From Trichoplax adhaerens (lineage: Eukaryota > Animalia > Placozoa): a stretch of 64,000 nucleotides of DNA. Positions 60,201-60,485 of the stretch are shown piece by piece. The translations under genes were made by a program, and so were the position numbers. The notes beneath the pieces were generated by a model that was given only the letters and a program-made list of their open reading frames with translations, made no database searches and was not told where the DNA came from. Within the stretch, counting starts at the first letter, position 1. The number at the start of each line of letters is the position of its first letter. The stretch is taken from positions 4,823,397-4,887,396 of the forward strand of contig NW_002060945.1 in the NCBI RefSeq assembly GCF_000150275.1, in the 5' to 3' direction.

Positions 60201-60485
60201 TAATACTTCTAATAAATGCTTAGGACATGTATATGAAAGAATGCTTTGATCGAGTTATAGCAGAACTGGAATGGGAAAGAGAGGTTAACTGTCGATAAAT
60301 ACGTGTGATGAAAACCTAAACATCAAAGAAAAAAACTTAAATTGTTACACTTTATATCTGTATTATAGCAAATTGATGTTAAGCCTACGGAGAACGTTGC
60401 TGCTGTTACTGCGTCTGAAAAGCCCTCAGCTAAAAAACTAACGAAGCCGAGTGCATTGGCTGATATTGGAGATGGTGATTTGTAA
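54267..60485 (+). CDS. SNX27: Sorting nexin 27 (PDZ-PX-FERM-like); multi-exon
   Basis: [99 protein letters not shown]. Ends ...[10 protein letters not shown]. Confidence 0.95.
55080..55519 (+). promoter_or_regulatory. Putative internal promoter and alternative first coding exon (ATG 55497, donor 55520) of SNX27
   Basis: Intronic TACAG/CTGTA cluster like those at the true promoters, followed by gcaacATGG TGGCACAACTAACTGAAAA|gtaaac. Phase 2 matches the acceptor at 57547. Confidence 0.45.

Follow-up and report, generated by a model that had tools for sequence, protein, structure and literature searches.

The SNX27-Retromer and SNX17-Retriever pairs are regarded as two independent pathways, each working by a mechanism of its own (PMC11589680, PMC9038204). 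So could a single sorting nexin dock on both complexes? The question is raised by a locus of Trichoplax adhaerens, contained in a stretch of 64,000 nucleotides that is referred to here as the window (contig NW_002060945.1, positions 4,823,397 to 4,887,396, forward strand), where the first-pass annotation had noticed an SNX27 gene with an SNX17-type end. In the available portions of the reports on SNX17 and Retriever (PMC11589680, PMC11339278, PMC11772769), and likewise in those of PMC11267458, SNX27 figures solely as a Retromer adaptor, and the published history of SNX27 traces only its Retromer and ESCPE-1 surfaces. The full-text literature, in which subscription journals are mostly not included and alignment figures are not seen by the search, yielded no description of a tail of the RICT type, that is, one that ends in the Retriever-binding consensus, on SNX27. 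Such a tail could be missed because the human, mouse and fly SNX27 all lack it. As set out below, the tail is real and conserved, and apparently unreported, whereas its function is deduced by analogy with the human proteins.

Gene structure and transcripts of Trichoplax SNX27

Chaining of exons yields a gene of 14 exons that encodes a protein of 559 amino acids with the order PDZ-PX-FERM; the chain has GT-AG intron ends throughout, runs from the ATG at 54267 to the stop codon of the tail exon and contains no internal stops. The features are as follows, each supported by the evidence given in brackets.

54267..54550, +, exon 1 (coding part): start codon, then the greater part of the PDZ domain, VPS26-binding loop included (RNA joint 54550-57547)
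57547..57784, +, exon 2: end of PDZ (H105, equivalent to human H114), linker, start of PX (chain, RNA joints, alignment)
57914..57988, +, exon 3: PX (chain, RNA joints, Pfam)
58129..58246, +, exon 4: PX (chain, RNA joints, Pfam)
58514..58584, +, exon 5: end of PX (chain, RNA joints)
58804..58920, +, exon 6: FERM F1 (chain, RNA joints, Pfam)
59022..59100, +, exon 7: FERM F1 (chain, RNA joints)
59220..59320, +, exon 8: end of FERM F1 (chain, RNA joints)
59409..59459, +, exon 9: FERM F2 (chain, RNA joints, structure match)
59609..59698, +, exon 10: FERM F2 (chain, RNA joints, structure match)
59772..59921, +, exon 11: FERM F2/F3 (R432 and K433, equivalent to human R437 and R438; chain, RNA joints, alignment)
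60000..60128, +, exon 12: FERM F3 (R493 and K496, equivalent to human R498 and K501; chain, RNA joints, alignment)
60224..60283, +, exon 13: final FERM helix, ending in ELEWERE (chain, RNA joints, AlphaFold)
60369..60485, +, exon 14 (coding part): tail of 38 amino acids, predicted to be disordered, and stop codon (chain, RNA joints, pLDDT)
60465..60482, +, RICT-type motif IGDGDL at the free C-terminus (consensus match)
60486..61509, +, 3' UTR, at least to 61509, with AATAAA at 61447 (contigs)

The last intron (60284-60368, 85 nt, GT-AG, phase 0) directly follows ELEWERE, and translation of 60369-60485 on the + strand gives 38 residues and a stop, with IGDGDL at the end, exactly as the first-pass annotation had read this exon. 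The GC content is 0.44 for the coding part of exon 14, 0.26 for intron 13 and 0.30 for the 3' UTR, which one contig extends as far as 61623.

The transcript evidence consists of assembled contigs, a form in which rare isoforms drop out, from 8 of the 23 runs, four compared over 53600-61700 and four others over 54200-57950. Among the joints listed for the former four, two runs join all 13 introns in RNA contigs; a third joins 12 exactly and differs by a single base at the remaining one, and the fourth joins none of them. The in-phase splicing of the terminal exon to the rest of SNX27 is borne out by joints in three of these four runs, which come from three studies (one on record as RNA and two presumed to be RNA), and by a single contig of 2693 nt that leads from 54279, inside the PDZ exon, to 61509 and includes the tail exon. 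On the strength of these splice joints, we reject a gene-model artefact as the source of the tail. Retention of intron 13 would make the protein end in VNCR, a form that does not occur among the contig forms listed.

The first-pass annotation had also entertained a putative isoform without the PDZ domain, which the contigs do not bear out. Among the joints listed, which for 53600-61700 exclude three weaker ones and for 54200-57950 comprise all, exon 2 is entered solely from the PDZ exon (7 of 8 runs), and in all four runs compared over 54200-57950 the joints between exons 1 and 2 and between exons 2 and 3 are the only ones. Intron 1 offers three in-frame ATG-to-donor candidates for exon 2 (55497, 55532 and 56700); none is used by any listed joint, and no listed joint in the eight runs leads from intron 1 into exon 2, with the proviso that contigs drop rare forms. 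The low-depth cover of intron 1 in several runs may derive from pre-mRNA or DNA.

The protein encoded in the window differs from the SNX27 of Trichoplax sp. H2 (RDD46347, P0002, 559 amino acids) by two substitutions only. Its PDZ exon is 100% identical to the respective parts of that protein and of the T. adhaerens model TRIADDRAFT_54558 (P0003), and both database proteins end with the same tail. The first 174 and the last 321 residues are common to the window's protein and TRIADDRAFT_54558, in which the PX exons (window 57785-58513) are garbled and a Pfam PX match is absent.

As for the surroundings of the gene, two runs have contigs in which a stretch at 53714 is linked to sequence that, by eye, matches about 52756-52786; the joined stretches, at about 53714-53830 (-) and 52756-52790, have minus-strand splice signals, and it therefore seems that a spliced, divergently transcribed neighbour begins some 400 nt upstream of SNX27. 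Short TACAGTAC-rich repeats at 54000-54125 and 55175-55430 are matched by many unrelated contigs and so are probably a dispersed genome repeat. Farther away, the window contains coding exons of a UDP-glycosyltransferase (Pfam UDPGT, 62419-62844, -) and of the C-terminus of a phospholipid-translocating P-type ATPase (Pfam, 7156-7599, +), along with a coding exon at about 48478-48703 (+) that, judged by eye, we take to resemble the end of a TIM44-type protein.

Two putative docking elements on one adaptor

In the Trichoplax sp. H2 protein, Pfam detects the PDZ (residues 35-122), PX (180-255) and FERM F1 (275-356) domains, and the best matches of Trichoplax SNX27 among solved structures are to SNX27, with an E value of 2e-59 for the FERM part (residues 274-522). 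The Retromer loop of the PDZ domain, which the first-pass annotation took to be kept, is indeed there: 17 residues at 54414, in which L58 and L65 align with L67 and L74 of a 528-residue primate SNX27, the leucines of the PDZ beta-hairpin that bind VPS26 (PMC9038204). By analogy, this loop likely binds Retromer VPS26 in Trichoplax as well. On the ESCPE-1 surface, the alignment retains equivalents of R437, R498 and K501, whereas K495 and K496 of human SNX27 are replaced by M490 and P491, in line with the account in PMC9038204. Thus, Trichoplax SNX27 resembles the human and vertebrate protein, an adaptor of Retromer and ESCPE-1, in domain order and, H114 included, in six retained residues. The vertebrate isoforms diverge just after ELKWRKE, which, as far as protein ends can tell, is the place of the last Trichoplax intron.

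At the other end of the molecule, the relevant yardstick is the RICT consensus, [ILV]-x-[DEQN]-x-x-L, defined by mutagenesis in which position -5 takes all tested changes, -3 most of them except Arg, and -2 most except Thr, Arg and Asn (PMC11589680). IGDGDL matches this consensus and contains none of the residues reported as non-tolerated, which fits the first-pass reading of the exon as a putative Retriever-binding tail of the SNX17 type. Among the 5661 stop-ended six-frame stretches of the window, which served as the chance set, the loose consensus closes 41 (0.7%), and the stricter form [ILV]x[DE]xDL closes 3; when the last exon is shuffled, the loose consensus appears at the end in 0.3% of cases.

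A well-formed RICT does not guarantee binding, as illustrated by the HYOU1 tail, and binding also depends on positions -9 and -10, such that the upstream sequence matters (PMC11589680). These positions are occupied by Leu and Ala in Trichoplax SNX27 and by Phe and Ala in human SNX17; three of the 14 residues upstream of IGDGDL are basic, and the NxxY/F motif that would precede the RICT is absent, positions -12 to -9 reading PSAL. In the AlphaFold model of the Trichoplax sp. H2 protein, built with a 21-row alignment, residues 526-559 have pLDDT below 50 and lack secondary structure, and the tail is undocked, a result obtained without an SNX17 control fold. The tail of amphioxus SNX27 is modelled as disordered and undocked, too; on the strength of this weak test, likewise without the SNX17 control fold, we set aside autoinhibition via its xVF remnant. 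Searched on its own, the tail matched neither the solved structures, with E up to 10, nor the ESM Atlas, a weak test for a short, disordered query.

Parallels are also found among the known RICT proteins. SNX17 shares with Trichoplax SNX27 the PX-FERM core and a disordered tail that ends in I-x-D-x-D-L (25 SNX17/31 tails; human SNX31, P0251, was assigned by length and tree position), EGIGDEDL in the human protein (bioRxiv 10.1101/2021.07.29.454387); the Trichoplax protein, unlike SNX17, has a PDZ domain, falls outside the SNX17 clade, lacks NxxF and has Gly at -3. In SNX31 and LRMDA, as in Trichoplax SNX27, the RICT closes an unstructured tail that is free of an autoinhibitory motif (PMC11589680); these two proteins have neither a PDZ domain nor a Retromer-binding loop, and their binding to Retriever is measured whereas that of the Trichoplax tail is predicted.

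In the human structure, the terminal Leu of SNX17 and its carboxylate occupy a pocket of VPS35L, Asp at -2 faces K14 of VPS26C, and Phe at -9 packs against VPS35L. A salt bridge of Glu at -3 to the VPS35L hinge has been predicted, and the human SNX17 peptide is reported to bind Retriever at about 5.7 micromolar (PMC11772769). By analogy, we favor the possibility, with a probability of about 0.7, that the gene in the window encodes a canonical SNX27 whose RICT-type tail docks in the SNX17 pocket of Retriever, with the PDZ loop on Retromer VPS26. If human proteins are a guide, the PX domain would bind endosomal PI3P and the PDZ domain would catch cargo with type I PDZ motifs, while the terminal Leu and carboxylate would enter the VPS35L pocket at the VPS35L-VPS26C interface, Asp at -2 facing VPS26C and Leu at -9 taking the place of the SNX17 Phe. 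Lacking NxxF, the tail would not be subject to an autoinhibition of the SNX17 kind and would be exposed as in SNX31 and LRMDA. With its loop on VPS26 and its tail on Retriever, such an SNX27 could route cargo to either complex or bridge the two. Because it carries Leu at -9 and Gly at -3, the Trichoplax tail perhaps binds Retriever more weakly than its human counterpart. With the gene structure, the splicing, the motif match, the loop leucines and the lineage spread all directly observed, dual docking by this protein is plausible. The novelty lies in the meeting, on a known adaptor, of two docking elements that have each been described before, so that the suggestion of a candidate undescribed system went too far.

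Distribution of the tail and its conserved positions

The first-pass annotation had suggested a survey of SNX27 C-termini, and such a survey reveals a tail that is common to many early-branching animals and some bilaterians. A search with the PDZ domain alone, in which the tail could play no part, gave 449 matches; of the 120 that were listed, 13 have a RICT end. A second search, with an alignment mostly of tail-bearing proteins and hence biased to these (120 of 478 matches listed), added Saccoglossus, Lineus and seven anthozoan species outside the query, and a third, with SNX27 residues 150-559, gave 24 matches, mostly from fish, and added little. The tally below comprises 157 named proteins, with fragments, crustaceans, some odd-ended insect models and most fish of the third search omitted (none of the named proteins from the PDZ-only search that were so omitted has a RICT end) and with ctenophores, tunicates, brachiopods, nematodes and a second placozoan genus outside the sample; in these counts, proteins of one phylum are kin rather than independent cases, and a single database model may miss the last exon, which makes the small negatives soft. 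Given as proteins with a RICT end over proteins named, the tally reads:

Placozoa 2/2
Cnidaria 11/12 (11/11 species; the exception is the second Acropora palmata isoform)
Echinodermata 3/5 (three starfish with it, crinoids lacking it)
Hemichordata 2/2
Amphioxus 1/1
Nemertea 2/2
PDZ-less proteins of unicellular relatives 1/2 (Syssomonas with it, Capsaspora lacking it)
Sponge 0/1
Annelida 0/3
Mollusca 0/11
Chelicerates and myriapods 0/11
Insects 0/48
Vertebrates 0/53
Choanoflagellates 0/4

We compared 21 RICT carriers of the SNX27 side, chosen by the RICT pattern, positions -4 and -6 included, and with TRIADDRAFT_54558 omitted as a duplicate. Asp at -2 is present in all 21, although the consensus does not require it, and the reportedly permissive positions -5 and -3 vary. 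The linker upstream of the motif is unconserved, with 24 to 87 residues between the last FERM Trp and the motif, so that constraint appears to act on the end as such. Phe at -9, found in 6 of the 21 tails (several deuterostomes) compared to 20 of the 25 SNX17/31 tails, points to common descent; a six-residue motif can, on the other hand, also arise by convergence, as LRMDA and PATE1 might exemplify. Gly occupies -3 in 8 of the 21 tails, whereas this position is D, E or N in each of the 25 SNX17/31 tails; the SNX27 motif may therefore have a lower affinity or a different ligand. The residues found at -3 (G, P, L and S) make these tails natural variants that could serve to refine the RICT rule.

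The main rival of the Retriever reading, unlikely in our estimate, is that Retriever is not the partner, or not the chief one, for which the tail is kept, and that it serves instead as a ligand of PDZ domains, be they of PDLIM proteins or of some other scaffold. In humans, the SNX17 tail binds the PDZ domains of PDLIMs through its terminal Leu and the preceding Asp, and mutation of the Glu before Asp-Leu has a modest effect on this binding, for which that position is not essential (bioRxiv 10.1101/2021.07.29.454387); the final two residues are invariant in the 21 tails. Furthermore, PDLIMs are absent in choanoflagellates according to the same preprint, and choanoflagellate SNX27 is tail-less. 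However, the type III PDZ-binding consensus given there, [ED]-x-hydrophobic, is broken by Gly at -3 in Trichoplax, which ends in G-D-L, and in seven other carriers, and Ser or Thr at -3, as in a type I ligand, occurs in one of the 21. The conserved positions -4 and -6 and, in deuterostomes, -9 are contacts in the Retriever structure, with the reservation that -4 and -6 were among the selection criteria for the 21, and the human SNX27 PDZ domain itself did not bind the SNX17 peptide, as stated in the preprint. The two uses of the tail do not exclude each other.

Probable history of the SNX17/SNX27 split

For the PX-FERM phylogeny, a profile search over cluster representatives was used (best 150 of 7411, with 30 divergent members identified by name), from which a quick tree of 57 rows and a careful tree of 34 rows (LG+C20) were built, the latter omitting 23 long-branched, redundant or unnamed rows; the root was set on the SNX17 branch by assumption. 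In these trees, the SNX17 clade and the SNX27 side separate with 100/100 support. The SNX17 clade includes proteins of Capsaspora (CAOG_01595), Pigoraptor and the choanoflagellate Didymoeca, all with a RICT and without PDZ. The animal SNX27 clade (15 rows of the 34-row tree, 100/99) contains the window's protein, and the SNX27 side further comprises choanoflagellate SNX27, which has the PDZ and no RICT, and a PDZ-less pair (98/93) of Capsaspora CAOG_07015, without the RICT, and Syssomonas, with it; the branch order within this side is weakly supported (82/45). A topology that places the Trichoplax protein within the SNX17 clade is rejected (p-AU 0.03), and with it we reject a mislabelled SNX17. 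The RICT requires six changes on the 34-row tree, a count by which gains and losses are indistinguishable.

The first-pass annotation had placed the dual-docking state before the split of SNX17 and SNX27, a view that the tree does not support: both sides of the split include a Capsaspora protein, and these two are PDZ-less, like the SNX27-side protein of Syssomonas, because of which the ancestor appears to have lacked the PDZ domain. Judging by these sequences, the common ancestor was probably a PDZ-less protein of the form PX-FERM-tail that duplicated before the animals, and the dual-docking state probably belongs to the SNX27 lineage after its separation from SNX17. The scenario would then run from a pre-animal PX-FERM-RICT protein, a form that SNX17 retained, to an SNX27 line that acquired the PDZ domain and, with it, Retromer binding, the loop for which has been dated to choanozoans (PMC9038204), and kept the tail into early animals; the tail would have been lost several times, in vertebrates, arthropods, molluscs, sampled annelids, crinoids and choanoflagellates. 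The tail is thus likely an ancestral Retriever-docking element that disappeared from the usual model lineages, although its absence in four choanoflagellate SNX27, in the SNX27-side protein of Capsaspora and in one sponge means that the ancestral reading needs extra losses.

An alternative, less likely than the PDZ-ligand one, is that the tail does bind Retriever but as a stand-in, SNX17 having been lost in Trichoplax with SNX27 performing both roles, or the motif having been gained separately. Of about 25 SNX17-clade representatives listed, 13 were identified by name, and no Trichoplax SNX17 is among these 13. Unrelated human proteins, too, have RICT motifs (PMC11589680), and a survey of PX domains reports that the reference proteome of T. 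adhaerens is devoid of FERM-type sorting nexins (PMC8280035). That claim is wrong: the SNX27 gene is present and was missed, most likely on account of the reference model TRIADDRAFT_54558, whose garbled PX exons give no Pfam PX match, and the weight of the survey as a negative is accordingly small. Moreover, SNX17 is present in Xenia, Strongylocentrotus and Lytechinus, and tail-bearing SNX27 is found in other species of the same phyla. Retention is also the more economical assumption, since the alternative calls for seven lineages to have gained the motif independently at one and the same position.

Could the tail be a mere relic of the duplication, with weak or no current function? The lack of the tail in SNX27 from the sampled vertebrates, insects, chelicerates, molluscs, crinoids and choanoflagellates implies that SNX27 functions without it there, and one of the Acropora palmata isoforms is tail-less, too. 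Nevertheless, the last six residues are kept in placozoans, cnidarians, deuterostomes, nemerteans and Syssomonas next to an unconserved linker, and a neutral relic is not expected to persist across such distances, which leaves this the least probable of the readings considered here.

It is an evenly balanced question whether the SNX27 of the ancestral animal was a two-way adaptor that delivered cargo with PDZ-binding motifs to Retromer or Retriever, or bridged both on one endosomal subdomain. If it was, the pairing of SNX27 with Retromer and of SNX17 with Retriever would be a derived condition, reached separately in vertebrates, arthropods and molluscs by the loss of one terminal exon or tail. 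That SNX27 has a Retriever-type tail in placozoans, cnidarians and invertebrate deuterostomes would suggest a recent separation of the two routes, and one that arose more than once.

SNX27 ends have some further features. Sycon SNX27 has a 117-residue tail that ends in DPNDGL in RefSeq and is truncated in the EukProt model, and the proteins P0131 and P0094 end in EDDEGL and DEEGDL; all three look like degenerate RICT, with the terminal Leu and without a hydrophobic residue at -6. Proteins of the choanoflagellate SNX27 clade end a few residues past [NK]-[FY]-F, NFF is found in the Syssomonas tail, and NIF follows the FERM domain in vertebrate long isoforms and in hemichordates; together, these may represent a second old tail motif. 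Many insect SNX27 (P0005, P0114 and others) share a conserved W-x-D-[TS]-G-[ED] end straight after the FERM domain.
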